Assembly (NCBI GenBank): GCA_035533535.1
Contig: DATLTP010000107.1
Span: 1 to 45,459 of the forward strand
DNA: 45,459 bases
Source: Bacillota bacterium
Lineage (GTDB): Bacteria; Bacillota; Sulfobacillia; RBS10-35; JAJYVM01
Reading direction: 5' to 3'
Shown: positions 3,928 through 44,982 of the stretch, piece by piece
How the letters are laid out: every line of letters begins with the position of its first letter
Numbering within the stretch: the stretch's first letter is position 1
Translations under genes and position numbers: made by a program
Notes under the pieces: model-generated
What the model saw: only the letters and a program-made list of their open reading frames with translations
What the model was told of the DNA's origin: nothing
Databases searched by the model: none

Positions 3928-3954
3928 CGGCGTGATCCGCCAACTGCATATGCG

Positions 3955-4067
3955 CTCATCGAGAGAGGTGGAGGGACTGGCCCGATGAAACCCGGCAACC
4001 GGTTCCGCGCGGGATTTTCGCGCGGCACGCGGTGCCAATTCCGACAGGCATTGGCCTGAAAGATGAG
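3955..4067 (+). promoter_or_regulatory. SAM-I (S-box) riboswitch aptamer
   Basis: CTCATCgAGAGAGGTGGAGGGACTGGCCCGATGAAACCCGGCAACC...GGTGCCAATTCC...aaaGATGAG matches the S-box core. The P1 helix is CTCATC/GATGAG. Confidence 0.85.
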
Positions 4068-4082
4068 AGGAACGCTCGCGCA

Positions 4083-4112: not shown

Positions 4113-4135
4113 CTTTGTCCGAGGGGGGTCTCCGG

Positions 4136-5368
4136 ATGTCGTACCTGCAGGGTCTCCGCTGCCAGCGCTGCGGCCACACGCTCGCCCCGGCGCCCGTACA
4201 TATCTGCCCCGAGTGCCTGGGGCCGCTGGAGCTGGTGTACGACTACACTGCCATGAAGGCCACGCTCAGCCGCGACGCCGTCGAGGCCGGCCCCCCCTCG
4301 ATGTGGCGCTACCGTTCGCTTTTGCCCGTCGGCGATGCCCCCGTGGTCGACCTCGGCACGGGGCTGACGCCGCTTTTGCGGGCCGACAACCTGGCCAAGG
4401 CCCTGGGCCTCCGCAACGTCTACATCAAGAACGACGCCGTCAACCCGACGTCCTCGTTCAAGGACCGCCCCGTTGGCGTCGCAGCCACCGTGGCGCGGAG
4501 CTTCGGCCTCGACACGCTGGCGTGCGCCTCCACGGGCAACCTGGCCGCATCCGTGGCTGCCCACGCCGCCCGCGCCGGCATGCGCTCGGTGATCTTCATC
4601 CCCGAGGACCTCGAGCAGGCCAAGATCATCGGCACGGCCGTCTTCGGCACCAACCTCATCGCGGTGAAGGGCAACTACGATGCCGTCAACCGCCTCTGCG
4701 CCGAGGCCGTCGACGCCTACGGCTGGGCCTTTGTGAACATCAACCTGCGCCCGTTTTACGGCGAGGGCAGCAAGACCCTGGCCTACGAGACGGCCGAGCA
4801 GCTCGGCTGGCGGGCGCCCGACCACGTGGTGGCCCCCATCGCCGGCGGCTCCGTGCTGACGCGCATCACGGCCGGCTTCGAGGAGCTGCAGCGCCTGGGC
4901 TGGATCCCCGAGACCAAGGTGCGGGTCTCCGGCGCGCAGGCCGCGGGCTGCAACCCCGTTGCCCGCGCGTTCCAGGCGGGCGCCGACCGCGTCCAGCCGG
5001 TGCGGCCCAATACGATCGCCAAGTCCCTGGCCATCGGCGACCCGGCCGACGGCGGCCTCGCCCTCAACGCCATCCGCCGCACGGGCGGCTCCTGCGGCGA
5101 CGCCACCGACCCCGAGATCGTGGAGGGCATGCGCCTGCTGGCGGAGACGGAGGGCGTCTTCACCGAGACGGCCGGCGGCGTGACGGTGGCCGTGGCCAAG
5201 AAGCTGGCCCAGTCGGGCGTGCTCCGTCCCGATGAGACCGTCGTCATCTACATCACGGGCAACGGCCTGAAGACGCTGGAGGCCCTTGGCGCCAGCTGCG
5301 GCCCGTCGGCCACCATCGCGCCGCGCCTCGAGGAGATCGACCGCGTGCTGGGCAGCGCCGCGGCGTAG
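4136..5368 (+). CDS. threonine synthase family PLP enzyme with N-terminal zinc ribbon (ThrC-like; candidate MetM-type homocysteine synthase)
   Basis: N-terminal CxxC...CxxC (CQRCGH...CPEC). PLP-lysine motif NPTSSFKDRP and ASTGN, typical of the ThrC fold. ATG 4136 has GAGGGGGG upstream. The TTG at 4115 lies inside the terminator T-run and is rejected. Confidence 0.8.
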   Translation: MSYLQGLRCQRCGHTLAPAPVHICPECLGPLELVYDYTAMKATLSRDAVEAGPPSMWRYRSLLPVGDAPVVDLGTGLTPLLRADNLAKALGLRNVYIKNDAVNPTSSFKDRPVGVAATVARSFGLDTLACASTGNLAASVAAHAARAGMRSVIFIPEDLEQAKIIGTAVFGTNLIAVKGNYDAVNRLCAEAVDAYGWAFVNINLRPFYGEGSKTLAYETAEQLGWRAPDHVVAPIAGGSVLTRITAGFEELQRLGWIPETKVRVSGAQAAGCNPVARAFQAGADRVQPVRPNTIAKSLAIGDPADGGLALNAIRRTGGSCGDATDPEIVEGMRLLAETEGVFTETAGGVTVAVAKKLAQSGVLRPDETVVIYITGNGLKTLEALGASCGPSATIAPRLEEIDRVLGSAAA

Positions 5369-5390: not shown

Positions 5391-5678
5391 TTGGCAACCG
5401 TGACCGCTGTGCGCATTCGCATCCCCGCACCGCTGCGCCCCCTGACGGGCGGCCAGGGCGAGGTGACGTCCGACCCGGGCAGCCTCAAGGACGTGATCGC
5501 GGCCCTCGACGTCGCCTACCCCGGCCTCAAGGACCGCATCCTGGAGCCGGAAGGCCGCGTGCGCGAGTTCGTGAACATCTTCGTCAACGAAGAGGACGTC
5601 CGCTTCCTGCAGGGCCCGGAGACCGAGCTCCGCGCCGGGGACCGGGTCTCGATCCTGCCCGCCGTGGCAGGTGGCTAG
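5391..5678 (+). CDS. MoaD/ThiS-family sulfur-carrier protein (C-terminal GG)
   Basis: 95 aa ending ...ILPAVAGG. TTG start 6 nt after GGAGGAG. Ubiquitin-like carrier size and terminus. Confidence 0.75.
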   Translation: MATVTAVRIRIPAPLRPLTGGQGEVTSDPGSLKDVIAALDVAYPGLKDRILEPEGRVREFVNIFVNEEDVRFLQGPETELRAGDRVSILPAVAGG

Positions 5679-6265: not shown

Positions 6266-6730
6266 ATGGCCGAGAATGACCGCCACCTGGTCGAAAACCG
6301 CCGCGCGCGGCATGACTACTTCATCGAGGAGACGGTTGAGGCGGGCATCGCCCTGACCGGCACCGAGGTGAAGTCGCTGCGCGCTGGGCAGGGCAGCCTG
6401 CAGGAGGCGTACGCGCGCATCGATCGCGGCGAGGCCTGGCTCATGGGCATGCACATTCCGCCCTACTCCCAGGGCAACCGCTGGAACCACGACCCCGTGC
6501 GGCCGCGAAAGCTCCTGCTGCACCGCCGCGAGATCCTTGGCCTGCTGCAGACCGTGCGCAGCAAGGGCTACACGCTCGTGCCGCTGCGCCTGTACCTCAA
6601 GCACGGGCGGGTCAAGCTCGAGCTGGCGCTGGCCCGCGGCAAGCACAGCTATGACAAGCGCGAGACCATCGCGGCGCGGGATGCGGCACGGGCCATCGAC
6701 CGGGCGGTGAAGGAGCGGTTGCAGCGATGA
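6266..6730 (+). CDS. smpB: SsrA-binding protein SmpB
   Basis: ENRRARHDYFIEE..EAGI.L.GTEVKSLR...L.....Y..GN..NHDP.R.RKLLLHRREI: canonical SmpB sequence. Confidence 0.95.
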   Translation: MAENDRHLVENRRARHDYFIEETVEAGIALTGTEVKSLRAGQGSLQEAYARIDRGEAWLMGMHIPPYSQGNRWNHDPVRPRKLLLHRREILGLLQTVRSKGYTLVPLRLYLKHGRVKLELALARGKHSYDKRETIAARDAARAIDRAVKERLQR

Positions 6731-7350
6731 CGGCGGCCGTGCTGTTTGACGTGGGCAACACGCTGCTGCATCTGGACTATGCCTGGGTCGCCGAGCACTT
6801 CGGGCGGCCCCTGCATGAGGTGCGCGCCGCTGAAATGTCGGTGCGCCAAGGGCTGAAGGGGCACAGCGGCAACTACTTCCTGGATGTGGCGGGGCGGCTG
6901 GGCCTGCCGCCCGGGAGCGGCCACGCGGTGCTCGTCGAGCACGACCGCCGGCCCGAGGGGCTGTGGTGCGTGCCGGATCCGGATGCGGTGCCCGTTCTGT
7001 GCGAGCTGGGACAGCGTGGCGTGCGGCTGGGCGTCATTTCGAACGCGGACGGCCGGGTGCGCAAGCAGCTCGAGATGGCGGGTCTGGCATCGTACTTCGC
7101 AGTCATCGTCGACTCCGCCGAGGTGGGCATGTCCAAGCCCGAGCCGGGTATCTTTCAGGTGGCGGCGGAACGGCTGGGCGTGGCGCCGGCCGACTGCATC
7201 TATGTCGGCGACATTTACCAAATCGACGTGCTCGGCGCCCAGGCGGCCGGCATGCGGGCATTGTGGCTCGCCGATGCGAGCCACAATGCCCCTGAGCGGA
7301 TCGACCGCCTCTCTGATATACTTGACCGTGCGGACTTTGGGGGTGCGTAG
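6727..7350 (+). CDS. HAD-family hydrolase
   Basis: DVGNTL motif I at the N-terminus, ...SNADG..., ...KPEPGIF..., ...YVGD. The start overlaps the smpB stop (ATGA). Confidence 0.8.
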   Translation: MTAAVLFDVGNTLLHLDYAWVAEHFGRPLHEVRAAEMSVRQGLKGHSGNYFLDVAGRLGLPPGSGHAVLVEHDRRPEGLWCVPDPDAVPVLCELGQRGVRLGVISNADGRVRKQLEMAGLASYFAVIVDSAEVGMSKPEPGIFQVAAERLGVAPADCIYVGDIYQIDVLGAQAAGMRALWLADASHNAPERIDRLSDILDRADFGGA

Positions 7351-7690
7351 GCTCGACGGGGGCTGCGGTTGGCGTGTGTCGCAGGCCGAGCGTCCACGAC
7401 TCGTTAAACAGTGGAACAACTGTTATCTGCCAATGAACCAGCTCTACTAGCCGCCTAAGAACCGGCTAACGCCGCCGGGCTAAGCCCACGAGTCTGGATG
7501 GCGTTTAACTAAGTGGGCTTGGCCGCCGCCTCGCCGTCTGAGGGGCGTCGGCGACACAATCAGACTGGCCGCGGCCGCATCCCGTCCTCGGGAGTCGGCC
7601 GCAGCGAGATTCAAATCGAGGAACAAGCCTGTAGAAGCGCACGTGGACCGGCTTTCGGACGGGAGGGGCAGCTCCTCCCCACCTCCACCA
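7339..7690 (+). ncRNA. ssrA: tmRNA (ssrA), 352 nt, tag reading frame ...ANEPALLAA-stop
   Basis: 5' GGGGGTGCGTAGGCTCGACGGGG pairs with 3' CACCTCC-ACCA, including a G3-U pair. The tag ORF is GCC AAT GAA CCA GCT CTA CTA GCC GCC TAA at 7429-7458. It sits downstream of smpB and is followed by a hairpin. Confidence 0.85.
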
Positions 7691-7734: not shown

Positions 7735-7822
7735 GTCGGTACGCCCGGCGTGGGCAAGTGACCTGGGGGTGAAATACCCTGCGGGACCTGACCGCGGTAA
7801 CCGCAAGCCAATGGCGGAACTC

Positions 7823-7858
7823 AAAAAACACGCCGTCCAGCCGCGATACGTGGACGGC
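7823..7858 (-). terminator. intrinsic terminator closing the minus-strand ATPase/helicase operon
   Basis: On the minus strand: GCCGTCCA-cgtatcgcggc-TGGACGGC followed by GTGTTTTTTGA. Confidence 0.65.
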
Positions 7859-8167
7859 CAGCGGTTGATGAGGCGGATGCCCGTGCGGCGTTCGGGGGGC
7901 GCGAGACGCGCTGCGCGAAGTTTGCGCCATCGTGGGCGCGCAGCCACCGGCCAGCCGTATGTTCCACCTTGCGACCTGTCCATTTCCGGGCCGGCCACAG
8001 CTCGCCGCAACCTCCGCCTTGTCGACCATCGCCGACGGCCCAGGCGGCGACCAGCGCCGCTATGGCGATGTGGATCTGCATCCGGGTATGGCGGATCTGC
8101 GGACCGAAGGTCGTCCGTCCGAGGGTCCACCCGTTCCAATCGCCGCGTCCGCACAGCTCGTGGTCGC

Positions 8168-9436
8168 CTACTCCGGCTCCCGCGCCGCGGCCGCTTCCCG
8201 GCCGCCCTCGTCATCCTCGTCCAGGGGCACCTCGCCGACGTCATGCAGTTGCACATGGGGCGCCTCCCCATACTGCCAGAGGAGGTCCAGCCACTGGATC
8301 GCCAGGCGCAGCCGCGTGCGCAAGCGGGTGTCGGTCGCGGGCGCCAGGTGCTGCACCTGCCGCCAGAGGCCGGCGGCGTCCAGGTCGGCGCGCCAGCCGT
8401 AGGCGGCCTGATGGTTTCCCACCACGGCCTGCATGACCTCGAGCCAGTCGGCCGGGCTCAGGGGATCGAGCGACATCGCTTCCTGCAGCGTGGTGATCCC
8501 GATCCGGCACCGCTCCTCGCCCTCGGCATCCCCGCGCTGCTGCAGCCAGGCTGGGGCAGCCTGCAGGTCGTGCCGCCGTTCGAGCACGGCCGCATAGAAG
8601 TTGCTGGCGACGGCGAAAACGGAGAGGACGTGGCGGCAGCCCAGGCCGTCCCCCGCCATGCGGCCCACGTTGGCGTACGCTTTGGCGCGCCCGCCGCGGC
8701 CGAGGCGACCGATCAACTCCGCCTCGTCAAAGAGGATGACCCAGCCGGCCATACCCTGCATCCGGGCCAGGAAGTCGATGAGCCGGAAGTAGTCGCGGGC
8801 CTCACGCTGCGCCGAGAAGCGGGCGACTTTGAGCGGCTCGCGGAAGTTGGCGCGGTGGATCCGCTTGAGATCGGGCAGCGACAGGTCGATGCGGGCCAGA
8901 TCCTGTAGGAGCGCCTCGGTCGCCTCGGTGCTGCTGCCATCGATCAGGTTCTTGATCACCCCGTACAGCTTGGGGTGGAGTTCGTCCTCCGCGAACCGGA
9001 GCAGCCGCCGCGCCATCTCGCTCCCGGCGGCGATGTCGGCGACCAGGCGCTCGATACCGGGTTGGCTGGCTCCTGGCAGGTAGGTCTCGGCGATCAGCTT
9101 CGGGTAGACGCGGTCCAGACGGTCGAGCGGGGTCTCGCGCGTCAGCGTCACCTCGCTGACCAGAAAGCGGCGCTTGGCCGCGAGGTGCCAGATCAGGCGC
9201 ATGGCGTGGGTCTTGCCGTCCCCGTAGTTCGCCTGCACGACGAGCGCGCGGCTGCCGCGCTGCTCCGTCGCGTCCAGGGCCGCCTCCGCCCGCTCCGCCA
9301 GACGCCCGCGGCCGGCCTGGAGCGGCGCCGCCGAGACGGGGAGGGGCACGCCGCTGCGCAGGTGCTCGATCATCCGCCGCGCCGCCGCCGCCCCTTCATC
9401 GGCCGGCGGCGGCAGGAGCCAAGGTGTGCTGCTCAC
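8168..9436 (-). CDS. P-loop ATPase, BrxD/DUF2791-like paralogue (gene D)
   Basis: Walker A ANYGDGKTH and Walker B WVILFDEAE. The N-terminus ARRMIEHLRSGVPLPVS..LQAGRGRL parallels gene A. GTG at 9436 overlaps the stop of gene C (GTGA). The upstream part of ORF 8168..9838 is rejected. Confidence 0.7.
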   Translation of the reverse strand: MSSTPWLLPPPADEGAAAARRMIEHLRSGVPLPVSAAPLQAGRGRLAERAEAALDATEQRGSRALVVQANYGDGKTHAMRLIWHLAAKRRFLVSEVTLTRETPLDRLDRVYPKLIAETYLPGASQPGIERLVADIAAGSEMARRLLRFAEDELHPKLYGVIKNLIDGSSTEATEALLQDLARIDLSLPDLKRIHRANFREPLKVARFSAQREARDYFRLIDFLARMQGMAGWVILFDEAELIGRLGRGGRAKAYANVGRMAGDGLGCRHVLSVFAVASNFYAAVLERRHDLQAAPAWLQQRGDAEGEERCRIGITTLQEAMSLDPLSPADWLEVMQAVVGNHQAAYGWRADLDAAGLWRQVQHLAPATDTRLRTRLRLAIQWLDLLWQYGEAPHVQLHDVGEVPLDEDDEGGREAAAAREPE

Positions 9437-10632
9437 GCCGCGCCACCCCCTTGCCCGCGCGCGGCCACCTCGAGCACGGCCTCGATGCTCCGCTTGACGG
9501 GGGATATCGATGCGTCGCGGGCGGCCCGCCATTCCGCCTCTGCCGCCGCCATGGCCATCGTCCGCAGCCCCTCCGGGGCGTCGGGACGCACGCGGCACAG
9601 CCAGGCCGTCGCAAGTTCGCTCCGGGCGCTCGGCGAGGCGGTCCAGAGCCGCTCGAGCACGATCTCGTCGGCGAAGCGGTTGATCTCGGCGGTGGCGACC
9701 TCGTTCTGCACGCGCAGGGCCAGAGCGGGGTAGGAGGCGACGCCGTACTTGCCATGGCTGAGGATCTCCGGTGGGCCGGCCAGAACCAGCAGCAGGCCCG
9801 GCAGGGCCGCCACGTCGTCCACAATGGCCCGCAGGCACTCGAAGAGGTCGTCGCGGCGCTGGCGGGTGTAGCGAAGCAGGAGGGCGGGCTCAAGGGCCGG
9901 GGGCGCGGTGGGACTCAGGATGGTCTCCAGGCGGTCGACAGCAACCAGCAGGCCCGGCCTGCCGGCCGCGCGCGCAAATTGCAGGAACGAGCGCAGCCAC
10001 AGGCGCCCCGTGTAGCGGTCGACCGGCCGGCGCACGCGCAGGCGGTTGCACTCGCGGGCAGAAACCCGGCTGCCGCGGACCCAGGCGTCCATGAGCAGGA
10101 GGTCGTCGCCGCCGCCCCAGAGCAGGCGCTGCAGCCAGCGGACGAGCCCCGTGGCGTATCCGCGGTCCAGGTCCGGGTTGGCGATCAGCCGCGCATGCAG
10201 GGCCTCGTCGACCCGGACGCGCAGGGGCGCCTCGGCGTGGCCAGCGGCCCGGGCCCAGGCGGCGAGGTCGGTCGCCTCATCCAGCACCACGCCCTCGTAG
10301 CCAAGGTCCGCGCACATGCGCACCGCGAAGGCGCGGCCGAGCGCGGGCAGATCACACCCGCCGACGGCGGCGCGGTAGAGGTGGTCGAAGCCCCAAAGGG
10401 GGTCTCGGGTCGCGTCGATCGCGGCGACCAGGTAGCCAAGGCCGCCTGCCGTGCCGGCCAGTTGGCGCAGAAAGTGTGTCTTGCCGGCCCCCGGCGCGCC
10501 GAGGACGAACTTCAGCTTGGCGCCCCCTTCGGGCAGCAGCCGCTCGAGGTGCTGCACCCTCAGAAACGCCCGCTGTCCGCAGGGGTCGATGTCCGTGGGG
10601 CTGGCTGCGTCCGCGGCCGCCTGCTCAAGCAC
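9433..10632 (-). CDS. P-loop ATPase paralogue with degenerate Walker B (gene C)
   Basis: Walker A GAPGAGKTH. At the position aligned with Walker B of A and D it reads LLVAVDRLE (D-R instead of D-E). The GTG start at 10632 overlaps the stop of gene E (GTGCTTGA). Confidence 0.65.
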   Translation of the reverse strand: MLEQAAADAASPTDIDPCGQRAFLRVQHLERLLPEGGAKLKFVLGAPGAGKTHFLRQLAGTAGGLGYLVAAIDATRDPLWGFDHLYRAAVGGCDLPALGRAFAVRMCADLGYEGVVLDEATDLAAWARAAGHAEAPLRVRVDEALHARLIANPDLDRGYATGLVRWLQRLLWGGGDDLLLMDAWVRGSRVSARECNRLRVRRPVDRYTGRLWLRSFLQFARAAGRPGLLVAVDRLETILSPTAPPALEPALLLRYTRQRRDDLFECLRAIVDDVAALPGLLLVLAGPPEILSHGKYGVASYPALALRVQNEVATAEINRFADEIVLERLWTASPSARSELATAWLCRVRPDAPEGLRTMAMAAAEAEWRAARDASISPVKRSIEAVLEVAARGQGGGAA

Positions 10633-11458
10633 GGCCGCCCGCCGCCGCCGCGGCGGCTTCGCCCGCCGCTTGTCCAAACGGCTCCAGCAGCAGGCCGCCC
10701 AGCCGGTCGGTGCCGCCGCGGCCCGTGGGCACCTCGAACGCCGTCCCGCCCGCATCGCGCTGGTCCGTCAGCACGATCCGCCACGGCTCCACGACCATGG
10801 GGTTGAGGCGGAACCGGTACAGGTCGAATGCGAACTGGTCGCGCGTATAGGCGCCGCGGCCGAAGTTGCCGAGCGCGAATAGCCCATACACGTCCACCAG
10901 CTTCACCGTCCGCCGCGCGGCGGCCCCCCCCTCCCCGGCCAGCGCTTCGTACGCCTTCACCAGCGATCGGCCGAAGCGCTCGTGCTGGAAGCCGCCTCCG
11001 AAGATGCGGTCGCGCTCGCGGCGAACATCTTCGGCCAGTGCCGCCGGCCGCAGCCGGTAGCTCGACCGCCGCCCGAAGAGCACCCGCTCCTCGTGCAGGC
11101 GAACCCGGATGGTGAACGGGAACAGGTGGTAGTCGGGATGGACGCCCTGGACGGCCAGGCCCTGATCGGCGCAGGCCCGGGCGAAGGCCGCCGCCCACTC
11201 CGACTCCTCGTCCGCCGCCGCGCTCGGCTCCGCCGGCATGGCGCTGAAGGCTTCCACGGCGGCATGGAGGACGGATGCCGCCTCTGCCGCCTCCGCCGCG
11301 CGGCTGGCCAGGTCCGCGGCCCGCCGGCGCAGGTCGTGCAGGTCGAGGGCGCCCGCAGAACGCAGGCAATGCCGGGCCAGTTTGACCGCCTGGTCGTGCA
11401 GGCTGGTCGCCCGGCGCGCCGCCTCGCTCACCTCCGCGTCGAACCGCTCCGTGAACAC
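10625..11458 (-). CDS. hypothetical protein, no recognisable domain (gene E)
   Basis: 277 aa. GTG at 11458 lies 6 nt after GGAGGGA. High GC3. N-terminal Ala/Arg-rich helical region, then ...HPDYHLFPFTIRV...LYRFRLNPMVVEPWRIVL... Confidence 0.6.
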   Translation of the reverse strand: MFTERFDAEVSEAARRATSLHDQAVKLARHCLRSAGALDLHDLRRRAADLASRAAEAAEAASVLHAAVEAFSAMPAEPSAAADEESEWAAAFARACADQGLAVQGVHPDYHLFPFTIRVRLHEERVLFGRRSSYRLRPAALAEDVRRERDRIFGGGFQHERFGRSLVKAYEALAGEGGAAARRTVKLVDVYGLFALGNFGRGAYTRDQFAFDLYRFRLNPMVVEPWRIVLTDQRDAGGTAFEVPTGRGGTDRLGGLLLEPFGQAAGEAAAAAAGGRA

Positions 11459-11552
11459 GTTCGATCCCTCCAGGTCATGGTGTGCATGGGTTTCGCGTCC
11501 ATGGCGCCATTCCCCTCGCAAGAGCGGGTGGCATCATCGGCCAGTCCCGCAA

Positions 11553-13634
11553 TCATCCCCCTTCCGGTTCCTCCACGACGGGAAAGCCATAGCCCGTGAG
11601 CACCTCCAGCGCCCCGTCGCCATCGAGTTCCCGCGCCGCGTGCAGCTCGCGCTGCAGTTGCCGCGGCAGGTGGCGGCCGAACTTCGGTAGTCGCAGCGCC
11701 GAGTCCGGCAGGTACGCCATGGCCCGACTCACCATCTCCGCCGCCGAGGGCGGGTGGGCGGCCGCCGCCGCGAGCCAGGCAGGTGCGTCGGCCCGATGGT
11801 CTGCAGCGGCCACGCCGCCCCACACCGTCGACGCCCATGCTCCGCCAAGCTCGGCGCCCAGCCAGAGCGCCAAGGTCGCCGCCGCTCGGTCCCCGGCGAA
11901 GGCATGCCACTGCGTCCGATCCTCGGCGAGGGTGATCGGGCGCTCCACGGCGCTCAGCCCGATCCGGGCCCATGCCGGCCGCAGCTCCCCGAGGACGGCG
12001 GCCCCGCGCTGATCGAGGTACGGGTAGGTCGCTCCCCCGCAGAGCACGTCCGCCATCGCCCGGCGCACGCGGCCATGCACCCGCCAGGGCGAGGGCACGA
12101 AGACGGGCGGCTGCTCGGACCCGCCCGGCCGCACCTCAAACCGCCGGCGGGCGGCCTCGCGCGCCACGATGGTCCAGATCCGCCCGGCCAGGATCAGGGA
12201 GGCTCCCGGCCGATAGATGGGCAGGGGTGGCAGCTGGCCCAGGAGCCGCGGCCCCGCGGCGACCTCCCACGCCTCGGAGTCGTCGAAGACGCCGAGGAAA
12301 CGCCGGTCGGCGGCCAGGCGCGCCCCAACCGGTCCGGCGAGCCAGAGTCCCAGATCCCCGCTGTGTCCCGGCGCCAGGTGGCCATGCCTCAGCATGTGGT
12401 CCAGCAGGGCCTCCGGCACGCCGCTGCGGTCGGCCGGTCGCGAGCCGCGTTCAACGGCGATGGCCACAAGTTGATGCCAGGTCACGTCGTGGCGCGCAGC
12501 GACGGATTCCGGCGGCTCCAGCCACCCCTCCCGCAGCAGTTCGACCACGGCCACGGCCTGGACCAGCCCTGCCTCGGTGCTGGCATAGAGCTGGCCCGTC
12601 CGCGCCCGTCCCGGCCGCCGGCCGCTGCGTCCCAGGCGCTGGCGCAGCCCCGTCACGCTGCCCGTGCAGTCCACCTCGACCACGAGGTCGCAGTCGCCGA
12701 CGTCGACCCCCAGCTCCATCGTGCTGGTGCAGACGATCGAGCATGCCTGCGGCCCATCGCGGAGGGCCGCCTCCGCCCGTGCCCGCTCGCGGGAGTGCAG
12801 GGACCCATGGTGGGCGAGGTAGCCGTCGGGGGTGCCCGCCATACGGCCGAGGCCGAAGGTGAGCGCCTCGACCCGCGCCCGGCTGTTGCAGAAGATCAGC
12901 GCCTTGCGCCCGGCGGTGACGCGGCGGAGATCCGCCTGCACGCCGTCCGGCGCATAGCGCAGGTGGAGGCGGGTTGGCTTCGCCGGCCCGCCTCCCGCGC
13001 AGACGGCGACGGGCTCGCCGAGGAAGGCCCGCGCCGCGGCAAGGTCGCTCAGCGTGGCCGAGAGCGCGACTCGGCGCGGTTCCACCTCCGTGTAGCGCCG
13101 CAGGCGGCGCAGGAGCGAATCCAGTTGGATGCCGCGTCCGGTGCCAAGGAAGGCGTGAAGCTCATCGACGATGACGAAGCGCAGCCCGCCGAACAGGCGG
13201 GGCAGGTGCAGCGTACGGTGCAGCAGCATGGACTCAAGCGACTCCGGCGTGGTCAGCAGGATGCCGCCGGGCGCGTTTTGGGCGCGCGCCTTGCGCGCGC
13301 CGGTCACGTCCGAGTGCCAGAGATGGACCTGGGCGCCGATGGGGGCCGCCAGGATGGCCAGGCGGTCGCGCTGGTCGTTGAGCAGCGCCCGCAGGGGCGC
13401 GATCCCCAGCGCGAAGAAGCCGGAGGTGCGCCCGGCCTCCTCCAGGTGCGAGAGGATGGGCAGGTACGCCGCCTCGGTCTTGCCGGACGCCGTGTCGCCC
13501 GCGATCAGGACGTTGCCCTCGCCGCCGCGGATCGCGCGGATGGCTGCCTCCTGGACGGGCCAGAGCCCGTCCCAGCCAAGCTCGTGCAGCACCTGTTGCA
13601 TGCTCGGGCTCAGCAGCTCCCATGCCGCGTTCAC
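11553..13634 (-). CDS. Lhr/BrxHI-like DEAD/DEAH-box (SF2) helicase (gene B)
   Basis: Q-motif region LWPVQEAA, motif I GDTASGKT, motif II VIVDELH, motif III SATL, motif VI QRLGRSGR. The roughly 300-aa C-terminal extension has no Cys cluster. The GTG start overlaps the stop of gene A (GTGA). Confidence 0.85.
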   Translation of the reverse strand: MNAAWELLSPSMQQVLHELGWDGLWPVQEAAIRAIRGGEGNVLIAGDTASGKTEAAYLPILSHLEEAGRTSGFFALGIAPLRALLNDQRDRLAILAAPIGAQVHLWHSDVTGARKARAQNAPGGILLTTPESLESMLLHRTLHLPRLFGGLRFVIVDELHAFLGTGRGIQLDSLLRRLRRYTEVEPRRVALSATLSDLAAARAFLGEPVAVCAGGGPAKPTRLHLRYAPDGVQADLRRVTAGRKALIFCNSRARVEALTFGLGRMAGTPDGYLAHHGSLHSRERARAEAALRDGPQACSIVCTSTMELGVDVGDCDLVVEVDCTGSVTGLRQRLGRSGRRPGRARTGQLYASTEAGLVQAVAVVELLREGWLEPPESVAARHDVTWHQLVAIAVERGSRPADRSGVPEALLDHMLRHGHLAPGHSGDLGLWLAGPVGARLAADRRFLGVFDDSEAWEVAAGPRLLGQLPPLPIYRPGASLILAGRIWTIVAREAARRRFEVRPGGSEQPPVFVPSPWRVHGRVRRAMADVLCGGATYPYLDQRGAAVLGELRPAWARIGLSAVERPITLAEDRTQWHAFAGDRAAATLALWLGAELGGAWASTVWGGVAAADHRADAPAWLAAAAAHPPSAAEMVSRAMAYLPDSALRLPKFGRHLPRQLQRELHAARELDGDGALEVLTGYGFPVVEEPEGG

Positions 13635-14959
13635 GAGATCGTGACGAAGCGCTCGTCGTCCCCCGCGTCCCCTTCCTGCAGGGGCACCTGGGCGGCCGCG
13701 CGGCGGAGCAGGTCGCCCACCTCCAGGTCGGCGTGCTGCTGCACGAGGTTGCAGAGCTGCAGGAAGCCGCGGACGGCCTCGCGCGCCGTCAGATGCTGGG
13801 CTGCGCCCGGCCGGGCGAGCAGGTCCTGCAGGAAGGCCGCCGCATCCTCGCCGCGGAGGCGGCTGGGCCCGTAGTAGGTGCGGTGGAGCCCAAGCACCTT
13901 GTGGAGCAGGGCCAGCAGCTCGCTCGGATCCAGGGGGCGCAGCGTCATCACCGGCTGGGCCAGGTCGCGATGGTCCGCGTCCGCCAGGTGGTTGGGGGCG
14001 AGCCGGCTGCGCAGGGCCGGGTCGGCCGCGAGCCCCCGGTACGGGTCGGTCAGCAGCTCGGGCGGACCGGCCAGGTACACGGCCAGATGCGGTGCATCGC
14101 CTTGAAGCGTGGCGTTGAGCAGGCGCAGGACCACCTCGTAGTTGCGGGCACGGGCCTCCGTCTGCGCCAGCCGGTACAGGTGGACCGCCTCGTCCAGCAC
14201 CACCACCAGGCCGGCGTAGCCCGCCGCCGCCGCCAGCATGGCCAGCAGCCGCAGCCGCTCATACCAGTCGGCGTCGCCGGGGGGCGCAGCGCCGGGTATG
14301 CCGAGCGAGACCCGCGCCTCGGCCGCGCTCCGCATCTCCCCGCGCAGCCACCGGGTGCAGGCCGCCGCGCGCGCGTCCTCCCCGGCCAGGGCGGCCTCGT
14401 AATAGGCGCGCAACACGGCAGCGAAGGCCGGCCCGCCCGCCTGCCCGGCCAGCTCGCCAAGACTGGTTCCGAACTCCCGGTTGAGGGCGGCGGCCATGGC
14501 TGGCGTGCGGTCTTGCCCATGTCCGCCCATGCGGGCGAGCGTCCGCTCGCGGACGCCTTCGGCCCAGCGGTCGAGCAGAGCCGGGAGCGCCCCGCCGTCC
14601 GGCCGCGCGGCCGAGGCCAGGCGCGCCAGCAACTCGCGGTAGGTCGCCAGCCCCTTGCCGTCGCCAGTCAGCCGCAGCCCTGGGCCGAGATCGGCGTCGG
14701 CGACCAGAAACCCCTGCGCCAGCGCCGCCTGCCGGGCCAGGGCCAGCACGAAGGTCTTGCCGGCACCATACGGCCCGAGGATGAGCTTGAAGGCCCCGGC
14801 GCCGGCTGCGACAGCCTCCAGTTCGCGGAGCAGTTGCCGAACTTCGCCGACGCGGCCCACGGCGAGATGGTGCAGGCCCGCGCGTGGCACGACGCCGGCC
14901 TGGAGGCTTTGCAGGATCGCCTGGGCCTCACGGGCGTTGGGTTCGGCCGCTGCAGACAC
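13631..14959 (-). CDS. P-loop ATPase, BrxD/DUF2791-like (gene A)
   Basis: AREAQAILQSLQAGVVPRAGLHHLAVGRVGEV..LL.ELEAV, then Walker A GPYGAGKTF and Walker B LVVVLDEAVHLY. The preferred start is GTG 14959, because the upstream part of ORF 13631..15079 overlaps gene F. Confidence 0.75.
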   Translation of the reverse strand: MSAAAEPNAREAQAILQSLQAGVVPRAGLHHLAVGRVGEVRQLLRELEAVAAGAGAFKLILGPYGAGKTFVLALARQAALAQGFLVADADLGPGLRLTGDGKGLATYRELLARLASAARPDGGALPALLDRWAEGVRERTLARMGGHGQDRTPAMAAALNREFGTSLGELAGQAGGPAFAAVLRAYYEAALAGEDARAAACTRWLRGEMRSAAEARVSLGIPGAAPPGDADWYERLRLLAMLAAAAGYAGLVVVLDEAVHLYRLAQTEARARNYEVVLRLLNATLQGDAPHLAVYLAGPPELLTDPYRGLAADPALRSRLAPNHLADADHRDLAQPVMTLRPLDPSELLALLHKVLGLHRTYYGPSRLRGEDAAAFLQDLLARPGAAQHLTAREAVRGFLQLCNLVQQHADLEVGDLLRRAAAQVPLQEGDAGDDERFVTIS

Positions 14960-15593
14960 CCCCGTTCCGTGAGAGACCGACCTGGCCGTTCGCGCACCAG
15001 GTCCGCGCCTCGCCGCCGGCATCGATCTCCTCGAGCACGGAGGCAGGCAGACGGCCCCAGGCCCGGACAAAGGCGCCAAACTCGGCCAGGGTCAGGGCCT
15101 TTTCCTCCAGCAGGGCCAGCGCGGCGCGCGCGACCTCCGAAAGGCCCGTGGGGCCGCCGGTCGGCCGCATGACGGCTGCCAGCATTTCGGCCGCGCTGTC
15201 CGCGCACGGGGCTGCCGTCAGCTCGCGGGCAGCCATCGGCTCGTCAGGGGCCCACGTTGCGGCGAGCGCCTCGGCGTCACGCAGGTGGCGGGCCGCGGCC
15301 GCCGCGTTCAGAGGCGCGGCCGGCGACCGGATCCCTGCCGCCGCCGACCTCAGAAAGGCCTGCAGCCCGACTGGCAGCGCCGCGAAGTCGGGCGGCGGCT
15401 CACCCACAGCGCCGGCCAGCCATGCAGCCACGTGGTGCAGGACAAGCCAGCGGAACGGATAGCGGAGATCCGGCCGCTCCGGCGGCCAGGGCCCGCCGTT
15501 GCAGATCTCCTCCCAAGCTGTCCCGCGGGCAGCCGCCCACAGACGGCCGGCGGTGTGCAGCCGCTCTTCCAGGGGGCCGACGGCTTGGCTCAC
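14928..15593 (-). CDS. hypothetical protein, first gene of the operon (gene F)
   Basis: This is the C-terminal roughly 220 codons of ORF 14928..16583. They have high GC3 and protein-like composition (...WPPERPDLRYPFRWLVLHHVAAWLAG...ALTLAEFGAFVRAWGRLPASVLEEI...). Everything upstream is antisense to the permease gene. The start is uncertain: GTG 15593 is preferred, ATG 15236 is the alternative. Confidence 0.5.
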   Translation of the reverse strand: MSQAVGPLEERLHTAGRLWAAARGTAWEEICNGGPWPPERPDLRYPFRWLVLHHVAAWLAGAVGEPPPDFAALPVGLQAFLRSAAAGIRSPAAPLNAAAAARHLRDAEALAATWAPDEPMAARELTAAPCADSAAEMLAAVMRPTGGPTGLSEVARAALALLEEKALTLAEFGAFVRAWGRLPASVLEEIDAGGEARTWCANGQVGLSRNGGVCSGRTQRP

Positions 15594-15668: not shown

Positions 15669-17474
15669 ATGCCCAGCCTGGGGTCGCTGATCTTCGGCCG
15701 CCGGCTGCGCACGGCGGAAGCGCAGCACGAGCGCCTCTCCGTCTGGACCGGCCTCGTCGTCATGTCCTCGGACGCCATCTCCTCGGTGGCGTGTGCAGCC
15801 GACGAGATCCTCACGGTGCTGGCCGGCGCCGGTGCGCCGCTCCTCTTCGCGCTGCCCGTGGCCGGCGTCATCGTGGCCATGCTGGGCGCATTTCTCATCG
15901 GCTACCTGCGGGTGATCGCCACCCATCCGCAGGGCGGCGGCTCGTTCCTGGTGACCCGGTAGAACCTGGGCGACCTGCCCAGCCTGGTCGCGGTGGCCGC
16001 CCTGCTGACGGACTACACCCTCACGGTTGCGGTCTCCCTGACCGCGGGCGTGCAGAATTTGGCCGCGGCCGTCCCGGCGCTGGCGCCACACATGGTGGTG
16101 CTGGACCTGATCTTCCTGGCTGGCCTGACCGTGGTCAACCTGCGCGGCCTCCGCGAGGCGGGCTCCCTGTTCGCGGTCCCCACATTCGAATTCGTTTTTG
16201 CCGCCTACGTCACGATGGGTGCGGTGGCCTACCGCCTGGTGGTTCAGGGTCATCCGGCGGCGCTGCCGCGGCAGGCGCCGGCGGCCCCGGCCCATGCGAT
16301 GACGCTCTGGATCTTCCTGCTTGGCCTTCAGCAACGGCTCGACCGCTCTGACAGGCATCGAGGCCATCGCCGACGGTGTCCCCGTCTTCCGTACGCCCGC
16401 CACGGTGAACGCCCAGCGCGCCATGGCGGCCATGTGCGCCATCCTGGCTGCCCGCCTCCACCTCCACCCCACCGCCAACCAGACGGTTCTGGTCGACCTG
16501 GCGCGGGCGGCCTTCGGCTCGAGCTGGACCTTCTTCCTGCTGCCGGCCTTCACCATGGCCATCCTGCTCATGGCGGGCAACACGTCGTTCGCGGACTACC
16601 CGCGCCTGTTCTCCTGGCTCGCGCGCTTCCGCTACGCCCCCCGCCAGATGGCCAACCGTGGCGACCGCCTGGCCTTCAACAACGGCATCCTGCTGCTCTC
16701 GGTCGCGGTTGCGGTTCTGATCGTCGCCTTCCACGGGTCGGTTGCGGCCCTGATCCCGCTCTACGCGGTGGGCGTATTCACGGCGATCTGTCTCAGCCAG
16801 ACGTCGATGACCCTGCGCTGGCTGCGCGATCGGGGGCATGGCTGGACCCGCAACGTGCTGGCCAACGGCTTTGGCGCGGTCCTGGCCGGCGTTGGGCTGC
16901 TGGTCACCATCGTCACGAAGTTCACCGAGGGCGCGTGGGCTGTGGTGGCGTTCGTGCCGGTCCTGGTGCTGGTGCTGCGGGGTGTGCACGCCCACTACAG
17001 CCGGGTGGGCATCCGGCTGGCCCCTGCCGACCGACGAGGCGGCCGCGCTTACAGCGGTCTCCCAGTTGGGGCGTGAGATCGAGCTGCCGGCCATCGTGGT
17101 CCCGGTGGGCGGCGTCCATCACGGCCAGTGCGGTGGCCCTGGCGGATCGCCTCGCCGCGGATGTCCGCACCGTCTATTGCGCCGCCGAGCCGGCCGACAC
17201 CACCCGCATGCGCGCGGAGTGGGCACGGCTCTATCCCGGGCGGGAGCTTGTCATTCTGCCCTCGCCGTACCGGTCCATCGTCGAGCCCCTGCGCCAGTAT
17301 GTCCGGGATCTCCGCCGCGAGCAGGCCGGCCGCCCGGTCGTCCTCGTCGTGCCGGAGGTTGTGCCGCGGCAGTGGTGGCAGCACGCCCTGCACAACCAGA
17401 CGGCCCTGTTTCTGAAGGGCGCAGTTCTCTTCGAGCCCGGGGTCTATGTCCTGAGCGTTCCGTACCGGCTCTAA
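15669..17474 (+). pseudogene. APC-superfamily amino-acid permease, disrupted (1 in-frame TAG + about 3 frameshifts)
   Basis: The permease sequence is continuous only if frames are joined. It reads MPSLGSLIFGRRLRTAE...GGGSFLVTR, then TAG (15960-15962), then NLGDLPSLVAVAALLTDYTLTVAVS... Frame shifts occur near 16318-16325, near 17010-17030 and near 17110-17130. The conserved C-terminus is ...SPYRSIVEPLRQYV...PEVVPRQWWQHALHNQTALFLK. Confidence 0.65.
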
Positions 17475-18214: not shown

Positions 18215-19615
18215 TCACGTTGTCTCCTCCTCGCGCAGGCCGGCGCAGGCAGCCGCCAGCACCAGCATGACCGCCGCCGGCAGGTCGAAGTGGGCCCCCG
18301 CCTCCGACTGCAGGTAGGCCGCGCCAACGGTGGCCATGGCACCCGCAACCCAGATCAGAAGCCCCCAAGGTGCCGACCGCCGGGCCGGGGAACCTGCGGC
18401 CAACAGGTAAAGCGCCGCGCCGAGGAGGAGCAGGGCCGCCATGAGCGGCAGGAACCCGAACGCGGGCACCGGGACCCGGCAGCACCCGGCGGGCAGCGCG
18501 GCCAGGTCGGCCACCAGCGGCTCAGGCTGCGGGATGCCGAGGCCGGTATGCGGGTTCCATGGCCCCCCGGCCTCCGTTTGCAGAAAGGCGCTCGGATCCT
18601 GGCGTGCCACCGCATACAGGGCGGCCGGCGCCGGGACCGCCAGGGGGGGCAGGCCGCGGCCCGCCCGCAGCTGGTCGGCCAGGGCCCATAGGGCCGCCCA
18701 CTCCGGCGTCGCGGCGCTGGTGCCCTCCATGTCGACCCAGCCGCGCACGTAGGTGACCAGTCCCGGCGCGCCCGCCAGCCAGGCCACATCCGGCACGCCG
18801 CGCCAGCGCGACGGAGCCGGGCTCTGCCAGGCCGGCCGCGACGCCACCCAGTCCGCATAGCCGCCGCCGCTGAAGGTCCATGCCCCCCAGCCGCCGCCGG
18901 GCGAAGCGGCCACCCCGCCCACGGCTGCCACACCTGGCATCAGGGCCGGTAGCCCGAGTCCCTGGCCGCCGTCGCCCGTGCTGACGAAGGTGGGGTAGTC
19001 CTGGATCGGCGCCCATCCCAGGCTGAAGCCGATGCGGGCCGAGGCCACCGCCCACGGCCCGGCGGCGACTGCCGACACGGAGACCACGTCGGGCCGGAAG
19101 TCCGCCAATGCCTTGCGCAGCTGCGCCTCGCCCGTACTGAGCCCGGGTATAACCCAGATGATGACCCCGAGGGTGGCGCCAGGGGCCAGGGCGTGCGCCC
19201 ACTCGACGTCCAGCATGGTTTCATCGGCCGCCCGCCGTGGCGGCAGGGTGCCGACGCTGGCGTTGATGACCTCCACGTGCGGCGCGGGGAGCCCGAACGC
19301 CTGGTCGAACTGCTGCAGCGCCGCCGGGTCGAAGCCGTTTTCGATCTCGACGAGCGCAATGCGCTCGCCATTCCCGTCCGGTTGCGACGGGACCCCGAAG
19401 GCGCTGCGGAACCGGGCGGGGGTCATGGCGTCGGGAAAGATCCGGAGGAGCGCCGCGAGATCGGCTGGGCCGGGCACCGAGGTGCCCGGTGGCGAGCCGG
19501 CGTGGACTGGCACCCGGTTGGCGAAGTCGAAGCCCGCTGGCGGCAGAAGGGCGGCAACCGCGCAGAGCACCAGCAGGGCCCGCAGTCCCAAGCGCCAGGG
19601 CTTCGCGCCGACCAC
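18215..19615 (-). CDS. S53 (sedolisin/kumamolisin-like) serine peptidase with signal peptide and C-terminal TM helices
   Basis: GTSAATPEWAALWAL serine motif. N-terminal hydrophobic LGLRALLVLCAVAALL. Two hydrophobic helices at the C-terminus. GTG 19615 is chosen as start because the longer ORF (to 20125) is antisense to the phosphatase gene. Confidence 0.6.
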   Translation of the reverse strand: MVGAKPWRLGLRALLVLCAVAALLPPAGFDFANRVPVHAGSPPGTSVPGPADLAALLRIFPDAMTPARFRSAFGVPSQPDGNGERIALVEIENGFDPAALQQFDQAFGLPAPHVEVINASVGTLPPRRAADETMLDVEWAHALAPGATLGVIIWVIPGLSTGEAQLRKALADFRPDVVSVSAVAAGPWAVASARIGFSLGWAPIQDYPTFVSTGDGGQGLGLPALMPGVAAVGGVAASPGGGWGAWTFSGGGYADWVASRPAWQSPAPSRWRGVPDVAWLAGAPGLVTYVRGWVDMEGTSAATPEWAALWALADQLRAGRGLPPLAVPAPAALYAVARQDPSAFLQTEAGGPWNPHTGLGIPQPEPLVADLAALPAGCCRVPVPAFGFLPLMAALLLLGAALYLLAAGSPARRSAPWGLLIWVAGAMATVGAAYLQSEAGAHFDLPAAVMLVLAAACAGLREEETT

Positions 19616-19681
19616 CTCAGGCTCACCACTTCGCCACCGCAGGCGAGGAACCCCCGCAACCGCGGCGAATGCTCCGGGCGC

Positions 19682-20206
19682 ATGGTCGAGATAATTTTTG
19701 AAACGCACGCGAGCACGACGGACAACGAGCAGGGGATCGCGACCGGCTGGCTGCCGGGCGAGCTCTCGCCCGCTGGCCGCGAGCAGGCCGTGGCCCTCGG
19801 CCAGCGCCGCGGGCGCTGGGCCGAAGTGGTGTTCACGTCTGACCTGCGGCGGGCCGTGCAGACCGCGGAGATCGCCTTCGCCGGGATGGTGATCCCCATT
19901 GTCCGGGACCCACGGCTGCGCGAATGCGACTACGGCGACCTGAACGGGTCGGACACCGCAAGTCTGCCCCGGCTGCGGCACATCGACGTGCCCTTCCCGA
20001 ACGGGGAGAGCTACCGCCAGGTGGTGGCGCGCGTGGGCGAGTTCCTCGTTGACCTGGGCGCCGCTTGGGAGGGCCGCCGCCTCGTGGTGATCGGACACAC
20101 TGCGACACGCTGGGCCATCGAACACCTGCTATTGGGCCGCGACCTCGCCGAGGCCGTGGCCGCGCCATTTGCCTGGCAGCCGGGCTGGGCCTTCCGCCTG
20201 CCGTGA
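19682..20206 (+). CDS. histidine phosphatase family protein (phosphoglycerate-mutase-like)
   Basis: N-terminal ETHAST (RHG-like), ...FTSDLRRAVQTAEI..., ...VVIGHTATRWAI... Confidence 0.75.
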   Translation: MVEIIFETHASTTDNEQGIATGWLPGELSPAGREQAVALGQRRGRWAEVVFTSDLRRAVQTAEIAFAGMVIPIVRDPRLRECDYGDLNGSDTASLPRLRHIDVPFPNGESYRQVVARVGEFLVDLGAAWEGRRLVVIGHTATRWAIEHLLLGRDLAEAVAAPFAWQPGWAFRLP

Positions 20207-21387
20207 GCCTTCACTTTCAGGCCCGCCCCCCACGTGCAGTGCCTCTGCCGTTCTTCGCGATGGGTCTCGCTGGCCTCCTGGCCACGCCGCTGGTGGCCCT
20301 GATCGACCCCGCCGTGGCGCTGAGCGACCACCCGGGCCCCGCCGGCCTTCTGTTTCTGCACCTCATCACCCTGGGGTTCCTGGCGCCGGTTATGATCGGC
20401 GCTTACTACCAACTGGTGCCCGTGGTGCTGGGGGCGCCCATCCGGCGGCCAGGCTGGGCACGGGTAATCTTCGCGGCCCTGGTTGCAGGCGTGTTCGTCT
20501 TCCTCTTGGGGTGGGGGGTGCGGTCGCCCGCGGCGATCGGCTGGGGTGGGCTGCTGACCGGCCTGGCGCTCTGGGGCTTTGTCGTGCACGTGGGCGCATC
20601 CCTTGTCCGCGTCCGGCGGCTGACCCCGACGGCGCTGGCCTTTGCGCTGGCCCTGGCTGCGCTGGCAGCCGTCGGGGTGCTGGGGCCCCTGCTGGCCCTG
20701 CGGATTGGCGCCGGCCTGCTGCCTGCGCACGTGGCCGCGGGCCTTGGCGGGTGGCTGCTGCTGACCATCATTGGGGCGACCTACCAGCTGGTGCCCTTCT
20801 TTGCCGCGGCAGCAGCACCCCCACGGTTCGGTATCGCGGCCGTCGTCCTGGTGGCCGTGGGGACCGTGGCGGCCGCCTTGGGTGCTGGAGTGTGGGTCGG
20901 TCTGGCCGGCTTGGCGCTGTGGGCCGCGGACCTGGTGCGCTTTGCGCGCAGTGGCCGCCAGACGCGGCGCGAGCCGGTCGTCCTCTATACGCTGGCGGCA
21001 GCCGGCCTGTTGATTCTGGCCGCTGCCGGCATCCAGACCGGCCTCCCGGCGCGGGTTCTGGTCCTGGCCGGCCTGCTGGCGGGCCCGGCCCTGATGGTCA
21101 TGGGCCAGCTGCAGAAGATCCTGCCGTTTCTGGCAGCGCTAGATGCTCCGCCCGGAGCCCGGCCGAAGACGGAGCAGCTGTTCAGCCGCCAGGCCGCCGC
21201 CCGCCTCCTGCCCCTGGCGGCGGCGGGCCTGCTGGGCCTCGCCGTGGCTTCCGGCTTCGCCTCCGCGCTGGGCGTCCGGCTGGCGGCGACGGTGGCGACC
21301 GCCGCCATCGCCGCCTACCTGCTGCAGCAGCGGCCCGCCGTCACATCACGCTCCAGCCGGCGTCCGCCACCAGCGCGCAGCCGTTGA
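20203..21387 (+). CDS. polytopic integral membrane protein, function unknown
   Basis: About 394 aa and almost entirely hydrophobic, with roughly 10-12 predicted helices by eye. The GTG start overlaps the upstream stop (GTGA). Confidence 0.6.
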   Translation: MSLHFQARPPRAVPLPFFAMGLAGLLATPLVALIDPAVALSDHPGPAGLLFLHLITLGFLAPVMIGAYYQLVPVVLGAPIRRPGWARVIFAALVAGVFVFLLGWGVRSPAAIGWGGLLTGLALWGFVVHVGASLVRVRRLTPTALAFALALAALAAVGVLGPLLALRIGAGLLPAHVAAGLGGWLLLTIIGATYQLVPFFAAAAAPPRFGIAAVVLVAVGTVAAALGAGVWVGLAGLALWAADLVRFARSGRQTRREPVVLYTLAAAGLLILAAAGIQTGLPARVLVLAGLLAGPALMVMGQLQKILPFLAALDAPPGARPKTEQLFSRQAAARLLPLAAAGLLGLAVASGFASALGVRLAATVATAAIAAYLLQQRPAVTSRSSRRPPPARSR

Positions 21388-23168: not shown

Positions 23169-23289
23169 CCGCATCCGCGTAGGCATCCGCCCGCTCGGAA
23201 CCTGCACTCCGCATCCGCGCGAGCATCCGCCCGCTTGGCCCCTGCACTCCGCAATCCGCGCGGGCATCCGCCCGCTCGGCCCCTGAACT
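23169..23289. repeat. three tandem 40-41 bp repeats in the menA/rph divergent intergenic region
   Basis: The unit is CCGCATCCGCG..GCATCCGCCCGCT.GG..CCTG.ACT. Copies are at 23169-23208, 23209-23248 and 23249-23289, and a partial fourth copy starts with CCGC. Confidence 0.8.
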
Positions 23290-23415
23290 CCGCGCTGGTG
23301 GCACCCACGCGGATCCCCGTGACAAACCCTCTCCCAGTTATACACGGTCCGCCGCCTTGCGGCGCACAGGCTCGGAACGCCAAAATACGGGGAGACATCG
23401 AGGTGATCGTCCCTC

Positions 23416-42378: not shown

Positions 42379-42400
42379 GCCTTCTCAGACTCTGCATCGG

Positions 42401-42474: not shown

Positions 42475-42486
42475 ACCCTCCTACGT

Positions 42487-44876: not shown

Positions 44877-44891
44877 ATGCCCCCGCCGTGA

Positions 44892-44965: not shown

Positions 44966-44982
44966 CGTCTTCCTGGGCAAGC

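Follow-up and report, generated by a model that had tools for sequence, protein, structure and literature searches.

A six-gene ATPase and helicase cassette beside a tmRNA gene, with a Shango-like half and a gene triad that often precedes BrxL elsewhere

Introduction

What is an operon of three related ATPases, one helicase and two proteins without assignable domains for, when no core gene of the BREX defence system lies beside it? The question is posed by a stretch of 45,459 nucleotides (nt) from a Bacillota bacterium (Sulfobacillia; assembly GCA_035533535.1, contig DATLTP010000107.1, positions 1-45,459), hereafter the window, in which six open reading frames (ORFs) on the minus strand, named F, A, B, E, C and D in their order of transcription, occupy positions 8168-15593. 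To our knowledge, how the BREX and Shango systems stop phages is unsettled, and BrxL, BrxD, BrxHI, SngB and SngC have assigned folds and no assigned roles; a compact cassette offers a simpler setting in which to ask whether such proteins form a loader-motor machine, whether restriction can work without methylation and what is sensed.

The first-pass annotation, made from the sequence alone, had taken the operon for an unnamed BrxD/BrxHI orphan built on one set of ATPase paralogues. Our analysis points elsewhere, namely to two modules joined in one operon. The first, F-A-B, resembles Shango, a three-gene anti-phage system (TerB-like protein, ATPase and helicase) that protects against phage (PMC10250203; Millman preprint) and whose components are called here SngA, SngB and SngC after their PADLOC profiles. 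The second, E-C-D, is found alone elsewhere, often with BrxL. We give a probability of about one in two to the explanation that the six genes form a single accessory cassette of composite make-up, most likely directed against phages or plasmids, whose F-A-B half derives from Shango (an SngB-type ATPase, an SngC-type helicase and a shortened protein in the SngA position without TerB domains) and in whose other half E is a coiled-coil adaptor protein. Such a cassette probably represents a form of helicase/ATPase phage defence that is methylation-free and so far undescribed.

Operon organization and coding signal

The six genes, their coordinates, strand, overlaps and motifs were all as the first-pass annotation had given them, and its reading of B as an Lhr-like DELH helicase, of A and D as BrxC_BrxD ATPases with C as their paralogue, and of E and F as proteins without an assignable domain was borne out with Pfam.

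14928-15593, minus strand: F, 221 amino acids (aa), in the SngA position, no Pfam match
13631-14959, minus strand: A, 442 aa, SngB-type (BrxD-like) AAA+ ATPase of the ORC/Cdc6 clade
11553-13634, minus strand: B, 693 aa, SngC-type, Lhr-like superfamily 2 (SF2) helicase with a DELH box
10625-11458, minus strand: E, 277 aa, member of a family without a name
9433-10632, minus strand: C, 399 aa, divergent BrxC_BrxD ATPase
8168-9436, minus strand: D, 422 aa, divergent BrxC_BrxD ATPase
7823-7858, minus strand: candidate terminator, hairpin plus U-run (8-bp stem, 11-nt loop, -17.5 kcal/mol)

In this DNA of approximately 72% G+C, all six ORFs displayed the pattern of real genes, with G+C at third codon positions (GC3) exceeding that at first positions (GC1) and GC1 exceeding that at second positions (GC2), the weakest coding signal being that of F (GC3 0.82-0.87). 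The A/B and C/D junctions each consist of a GTGA overlap, E and C share GTGCTTGA, and F and A overlap over 32 nt, while B and E are separated by a 94-nt spacer with GGAGGGA just 5' of the E start. The chosen starts match the N-termini of the orthologues. A public gene prediction (P0008, 14928-16295) renders F as a protein of 455 aa reaching into the region of a transporter gene on the opposite strand; we regard this as an over-extension because a 221-aa F starting at 15593 is what both the frame analysis and the N-termini of the orthologues favour. The idea that F is the truncated end of a longer SngA gene was likewise rejected, as the upstream DNA is that opposite-strand transporter and the orthologues share the start position.

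The hairpin and U-run that had been named as the operon's terminator do exist, 310 nt past the stop codon of D, and may act as such; the hairpin is statistically undistinctive, being no more stable than shuffled sequence (z = -0.73), and it was not reported by the terminator scan. An 86-aa ORF between the D stop codon and the hairpin (7821-8081, minus strand) has a weak coding signal and no domain match, lies in a spacer that differs in L001, a related locus with the same six genes, and is probably not a gene.

The Shango-like half

Both A and B are closer to Shango than to BREX, and the order of a small protein, an ATPase and a helicase is that of Shango, so that the description as an unnamed BrxD/BrxHI orphan is not supported. 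Protein A matched the BrxC_BrxD family of Pfam (PF10923, 2.7e-118) and the PADLOC SngB profile over residues 9-426 (4.1e-116; 386.6 bits), scoring lower against PADLOC BrxD (9.9e-55; 184.4 bits) and falling under the cut-off of NCBIfam BREX_BrxD (187.9 bits against 350). Its Walker A (GPYGAGKT) and Walker B (VVVLDEA) motifs are kept in nine orthologues. Protein B, composed of the Pfam domains DEAD and Helicase_C, matched PADLOC SngC over residues 3-678 (1e-148; 495.2 bits), again above its score for BrxHI (1.5e-124; 414.8 bits). Its closest solved structures are mycobacterial Lhr (5v9x, 7lhl) and Bacillus subtilis YprA (6znp), and its top NCBIfam match is the ligase-associated DEXH helicase TIGR04121, albeit with 196 bits against a cut-off of 850; PRK13767 was matched with 155 bits against a cut-off of 849.

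The counterpart of SngA is far less clear. The AlphaFold2 model of F (predicted local distance difference test score, pLDDT, 72.7) is a helical N-terminal domain joined through a disordered linker (residues 116-148) to a C-terminal winged helix, for which Foldseek returned weak matches to winged helix-turn-helix folds. At Pfam thresholds F matched nothing, and neither TerB_N nor TerB was found in F and its three orthologues even at E = 10. Residues 58-190 of F weakly matched positions 364-493 of the 528-position PADLOC SngA profile (E = 0.0027), and this C-terminal stretch of the profile matched all four members of the F family (best 6.8e-5), Pfam TerB_C matching one of the four (E = 0.18). 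The likeness of F to TerB_C is weak; three tests (Pfam, PADLOC and hhalign) point in the same direction and a reverse search (below) did not confirm it, and F would retain at most the winged-helix tail of SngA. Canonical SngA proteins from plasmid Shango loci, by comparison, are 786-847 aa long and carry TerB_N (1e-47 to 1e-67), TerB (approximately 1e-8) and TerB_C; these loci consist of the TerB_N protein, the ATPase and the helicase, without E-C-D.

Conservation of the six-gene cassette

The order F-A-B-E-C-D recurred in eight distinct loci and at least six different flanking contexts. These loci were taken from the contigs of five E and five F non-self relatives obtained by word-indexed searches and from five species-representative loci, and all are from metagenomes and metagenome-assembled genomes of uncultured, high-GC organisms. 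An E homologue close enough to detect was present in only five of 185,579 species representatives, and the only five non-self homologues of F found by the word-indexed search all lie within six-gene cassettes. Across loci (tblastn), the best conserved proteins were D (59-80% identity to the window protein) and A (54-79%), and the least conserved was F (31-50%). The flanks of the loci vary, including smpB, an HAD hydrolase gene and the transfer-messenger RNA (tmRNA) gene, an integrase fragment with PaREP1, AIM24, BNR_4 and, in another locus, a small-molecule methyltransferase with an ABC transporter; in L004 the integrase fragment lies upstream of the cassette. F-A-B of the window's type was joined to E-C-D in all eight loci that carry it, and in L001 the B and E genes overlap. 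The constant order, this overlap and the confinement of the short F to cassettes argue that the cassette is conserved as one unit.

The absence of a BREX core, claimed for the window, extends to its homologues. The flanking genes tested in the window yielded no methyltransferase, PglZ, nuclease or toxin domain, and no PglX, PglZ, PglW or BrxC was present among the called genes of the examined loci L001-L012; PglX and PglZ, beside which homologous clusters might always have stood, accompany none of the eight six-gene loci. Neither the six-gene set nor protein E has a profile in PADLOC 2.0, Pfam or NCBIfam, and the literature searched described neither. The operon is a candidate undescribed system, although half of it belongs to a named family and the unassigned unit is E-C-D.

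ATPases C and D and protein E

The ATPases C and D are distant from A and from each other, the three sharing only 28-32% identity over local stretches. PF10923 was matched by C at 3e-19 and by D at 2.6e-22, C also matched PADLOC BrxD (1.1e-17), and NCBIfam BREX_BrxD accepted none of A, C and D. Walker A is intact in all three (GAPGAGKT in C; ANYGDGKT in D). A DEA Walker B occurs in A and D only, as had been stated: that of D reads VILFDEAE, and that of C reads LLVAVDR, without the catalytic glutamate. The Walker B aspartate is followed by glycine or arginine in nine of nine C orthologues (hhhVD[R/G], h being a hydrophobic residue), and, with distant relatives included, 11 of 12 C-type proteins show hhhhD[G/D/N/R] and 11 of 11 D-type proteins hhhhDE. 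Lacking this glutamate, C probably binds ATP and hydrolyses it weakly, and the asymmetry between C and D, judged from these motifs, appears to be ancient. BrxD-family proteins have been classed as AAA+ ATPases of the ORC/Cdc6 clade (PMC12839542).

The AlphaFold2 model of E (pLDDT 75.5) begins with three long helices (residues 2-98) and continues into an alpha/beta domain that carries the conserved motif FAFD(I/L)YR(L/F)R. Protein E matched nothing in Pfam, PADLOC or NCBIfam, and sequence profiles of the PDB returned only designed or natural helical-bundle or coiled-coil proteins (best E = 3.1e-07), every match falling on the N-terminal helices. A PD-(D/E)xK nuclease had been considered on the strength of 'YPDY...EER' in close homologues; no nuclease fold was matched, and the assignment was rejected because D109 and EER are not kept across the wider family. 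E and F are not paralogues either (hhalign E = 0.6, unrelated).

An exhaustive HMMER search with the E profile over 1.84 billion representative proteins, clustered at 50% identity, returned 216 clusters at E <= 1e-3 and 99 at E <= 1e-10, nearly all of the matches listed being approximately 250-280 aa long. Ten cluster members tested for Pfam domains had none. E adds an unannotated family of 216 clusters that PADLOC 2.0, Pfam and NCBIfam do not recognize. For metagenomes the query was a narrower alignment, the wide E alignment being too divergent.

The E-C-D triad with and without BrxL

At every examined locus with enough sequence, a distant E gene was followed directly by a C-type and then a D-type ATPase gene. 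At least ten loci carry E-C-D without F-A-B, and F, A and the SngC-type helicase were absent from these distant contexts. In all six metagenome loci that reach beyond D (L019, L021-L024 and L027), the next gene encodes a bona fide BrxL in which the domains BrxL_N, BrxL_ATPase and Lon_C are recognized (1e-86 to 7e-98), with a PADLOC BrxL match of 8.7e-123:

L019, 12733-14763: BrxL after E-C-D
L021, 3850-4707: BrxL after E-C-D
L022, 13102-15207: BrxL after E-C-D
L023, 13038-15080: BrxL after E-C-D
L024, 7472-9523: BrxL after E-C-D
L027, 2640-4565: BrxL after E-C-D

No BREX core genes were found near these loci, and neither the window, nor L001-L017, nor any six-gene locus has BrxL, so that, between these two groups, the triads without BrxL are exactly those with F-A-B and the two partners are mutually exclusive. 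A published BREX survey calls BrxL specific to BREX types 1 and 4; types 1 and 2 differ by the exchange of BrxL for BrxD plus BrxHI (PMC12839542); BrxL itself forms an ATP-dependent, DNA-encircling, MCM-like ring (PMC10164562). Its occurrence after E-C-D without a BREX core appears to be unreported, and the literature searched contained no description of E, of the triad or of a stand-alone BrxL cassette.

From the distribution of the E-C-D family and the BrxL swap, the cassette of the window can be read as an E-C-D variant in which a TerB-less Shango-type module replaces BrxL, and E-C-D would be an older and wider unit than its pairing with F-A-B. This replaces the earlier picture of one set of paralogues by that of two modules. 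A further step, which we take only tentatively, is to see in E-C-D the core of an undescribed, methylation-free defence family, a sensor/loader for interchangeable motors that would mostly be BrxL and here the SngB/SngC pair.

In a rival reading, F-A-B is a reduced Shango variant and E-C-D a second, independent system, the two lying side by side and only travelling together as a small defence island. Canonical Shango works with three genes and its plasmid loci lack E-C-D, E-C-D occurs without F-A-B, and the 94-nt gap before E contains its own ribosome-binding site in the window. Against such independence, the two halves were never apart in the window's lineage (8/8 loci, at least six contexts), the B and E genes of L001 overlap, the defining TerB domains of SngA are missing from F, whose short form is met nowhere else, and the triads without BrxL are precisely those that carry F-A-B. 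We consider this the most credible of the alternatives, though a good deal less probable than a single composite cassette.

The surroundings of the distant triads are varied. In L018 the triad adjoins a type IIG restriction-modification enzyme and an HKD-Snf2 helicase. The helicases upstream of E in L023 and L025, considered as SngC-type, proved to be ordinary RecQ, and L023 also has a MerA-like gene upstream. In the related loci L022 (15223-16344) and L024 (9544-10677), BrxL is followed by a gene for a glycosyltransferase of family 4 (GT4) with a sub-threshold match to a GT4-conflict profile, which may be a further component or a coincidence.

Genomic setting at the tmRNA gene

The cassette lies next to the tmRNA gene, which was found with Rfam and missed by ARAGORN:

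7339-7690, plus strand: tmRNA (ssrA), Rfam RF00023, 136.4 bits

This gene is preceded by smpB (6266-6730) and an HAD hydrolase gene (6727-7350), and the cassette begins approximately 480 nt past its 3' end. The arrangement in L001 is orthologous. Two further relatives, L034 and L035, have the same smpB, HAD and tmRNA genes, with an HAD protein 70-72% identical, and different cargo beyond them: a BTAD and STAND NTPase protein in L034, and an AAA ATPase, an S8 protease and an HTH_32 protein in L035. Similarity among the window and its three relatives stops exactly at the CCA of the tmRNA 3' end, which, on this comparison, appears to be the left edge of a variable, island-type hotspot carrying the cassette. 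A tmRNA-adjacent variable hotspot is thereby revealed in an uncultured high-GC lineage. The exchange of cargo at ssrA, the integrase fragment of L004, the neighbours of the L018 triad and the rarity of the cassette (5/185,579) together argue for its accessory nature.

These observations bear on whether the operon might be a housekeeping or stress-induced machine for DNA repair or replication restart centred on an Lhr-type helicase, in the manner of Lhr-Nei2 or MrfAB. B does have Lhr and YprA/MrfA as its closest solved relatives, sharing their SF2 core, and TIGR04121 as its top NCBIfam match; effector and methylase are absent, and metabolic genes often adjoin distant triads, two of which have RecQ upstream. 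The repair-helicase scores of B are nevertheless far under their cut-offs (for instance, 196 against 850), and the defence profile SngC matches it along its whole length. The operon has no ligase, glycosylase or exonuclease partner and neither Nei2 nor MrfB, and the partners that B does have differ from those of Lhr and MrfA. The distribution is patchy and mobile, the cassette being rare, placed at varied sites and replaced by other cargo at the same ssrA gene in close relatives. A repair role for the cassette is accordingly unlikely.

More improbable still is that the genes serve to replicate or maintain an integrated mobile element, with ORC/Cdc6-like initiators and the helicase or BrxL as replicative motor. 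The clade of A, C and D, the MCM-like nature of BrxL, the position at a tmRNA gene, which is a common integration site, the integrase fragment of L004 and the MerA-like gene of L023 would all suit such a role, but intact integrase, relaxase, partition and structural phage genes were absent from the examined six-gene loci, no att repeat was found in the window, no homologue occurred in the plasmid and phage collections searched, and the ATPase family is, among known systems, tied to BREX and Shango. An eroded type 2 BREX (Pgl) locus, left with BrxD and BrxHI (a tightly linked pair in that type) after the loss of PglX, PglZ, PglW and BrxC, is largely refuted, for although A and B also match the BrxD and BrxHI profiles (9.9e-55 and 1.5e-124), six intact genes stand in the same order in eight loci without a BREX core gene or remnant, the Shango profiles score higher, the NCBIfam BREX_BrxD cut-off is missed and the coding signal is strong throughout.

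Relation to known systems and proposed mechanism

The composite cassette resembles Shango (Millman et al. 2022; Johnson et al. 2023, PMC10250203) in that A and B are homologous to SngB and SngC over their full length, the order of small or TerB protein, ATPase and helicase is the same, and neither system has a methyltransferase or nuclease. It differs in that canonical SngA carries TerB_N, TerB and TerB_C over 786-847 aa while the 221-aa F lacks TerB_N and TerB, and in that canonical Shango stands alone with three genes while the F-A-B of the cassette is always joined to E-C-D. With BREX types 1 and 2 (Goldfarb et al. 2015; PMC12839542; PMC10164562) it shares PF10923 ATPases, a BrxHI-related helicase, BrxL in its sister cassettes and the same alternation of a BrxL ring with a pair of ATPase and SF2 helicase; however, PglX, PglZ, BrxC/PglY, PglW, BrxA and BrxB are absent from every cassette locus, and the cassette has three short BrxD-like paralogues instead of one, in addition to E. 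With no BREX core gene and without the TerB domains by which SngA is defined, the cassette belongs to neither system, being made in part, to judge from its gene content, of Shango and BREX accessory parts. An analogy can also be drawn with ORC/Cdc6 and MCM and other heteromeric AAA+ loaders, in which paralogous ATPases, one of them degenerate, accompany an MCM-like ring or helicase; for the cassette, this comparison draws on the family classification in the literature and on gene adjacency, as read from the genes.

One competent ATPase (D), a degenerate one (C), a non-catalytic coiled-coil protein (E) and a variable motor fit an asymmetric sensor/loader. We propose that E, C and D could form such an ATP-driven assembly on foreign DNA or on replication intermediates, which would recruit or activate a DNA motor: BrxL in the sister cassettes and, in the window, helicase B together with A, the SngB-type ATPase of its own module, and F, the winged-helix protein. 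The motor would then unwind or clear the invading DNA and so stop its replication, in a scheme that has no methylation mark and no dedicated nuclease. As no nuclease, protease or toxin is encoded, the effect would have to come from the unwinding itself, from displaced replication proteins or from host nucleases. If this is true, the 'accessory' motors of BREX and Shango would be portable restriction modules able to act without a modification enzyme.

Several results weigh against a composite defence cassette. None of the six proteins of the window contains a recognizable nuclease, protease or toxin effector. F can be linked to SngA only weakly: hhalign returned E = 0.009 at 4% probability, and in a reverse hidden Markov model search true SngA scored no higher than shuffled sequences. 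The model of E had no match below E = 0.03 in the PDB and BFVD (Foldseek) except to coiled coils, and no conserved catalytic residue set was found in its family. Neither an integrase nor a repeat of the tmRNA 3' end (att) was found in the window, and no homologue of E or D among 72,556 plasmids and 50,697 phage genomes. The triads of L037 and L039 have no motor gene directly downstream. The eight-versus-six exclusivity of the two partners counts lineages and not independent events, because the loci are mutually related. Finally, the expectation that homologues of E and F would reveal a conserved gene order in varied contexts was confirmed for the six-gene cassette, whereas the distant triads, in the few contexts available, lie mostly beside metabolic and envelope genes and not beside known defence genes.

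Other features of the window

Divergent from F, a transporter gene (15669-17474, plus strand) with weak K_trans and AA_permease_2 matches has an in-frame stop codon at 15960-15962 and apparent frame changes near 16250 and 17000; it is absent from L001 and is either a pseudogene or an assembly error. Two sizeable genes further to the right of the cassette (18215-20098, minus strand, 627 aa; 20239-21387, plus strand, 382 aa) had no Pfam or PADLOC match. On the other side of the cassette, an S-adenosylmethionine (SAM) riboswitch (3953-4069, plus strand) precedes genes for a pyridoxal phosphate-dependent enzyme (4115-5368) and a ThiS-family protein (5409-5678), an arrangement also present in L001. 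Three tandem copies of a 40-41-nt repeat (85-93% identical) occupy 23173-23293, between a UbiA-family gene and the RNase PH gene, and two tRNA clusters (42303-42563 and 44800-45058) comprise Pro-Gly-Arg and His-Gln-Lys.

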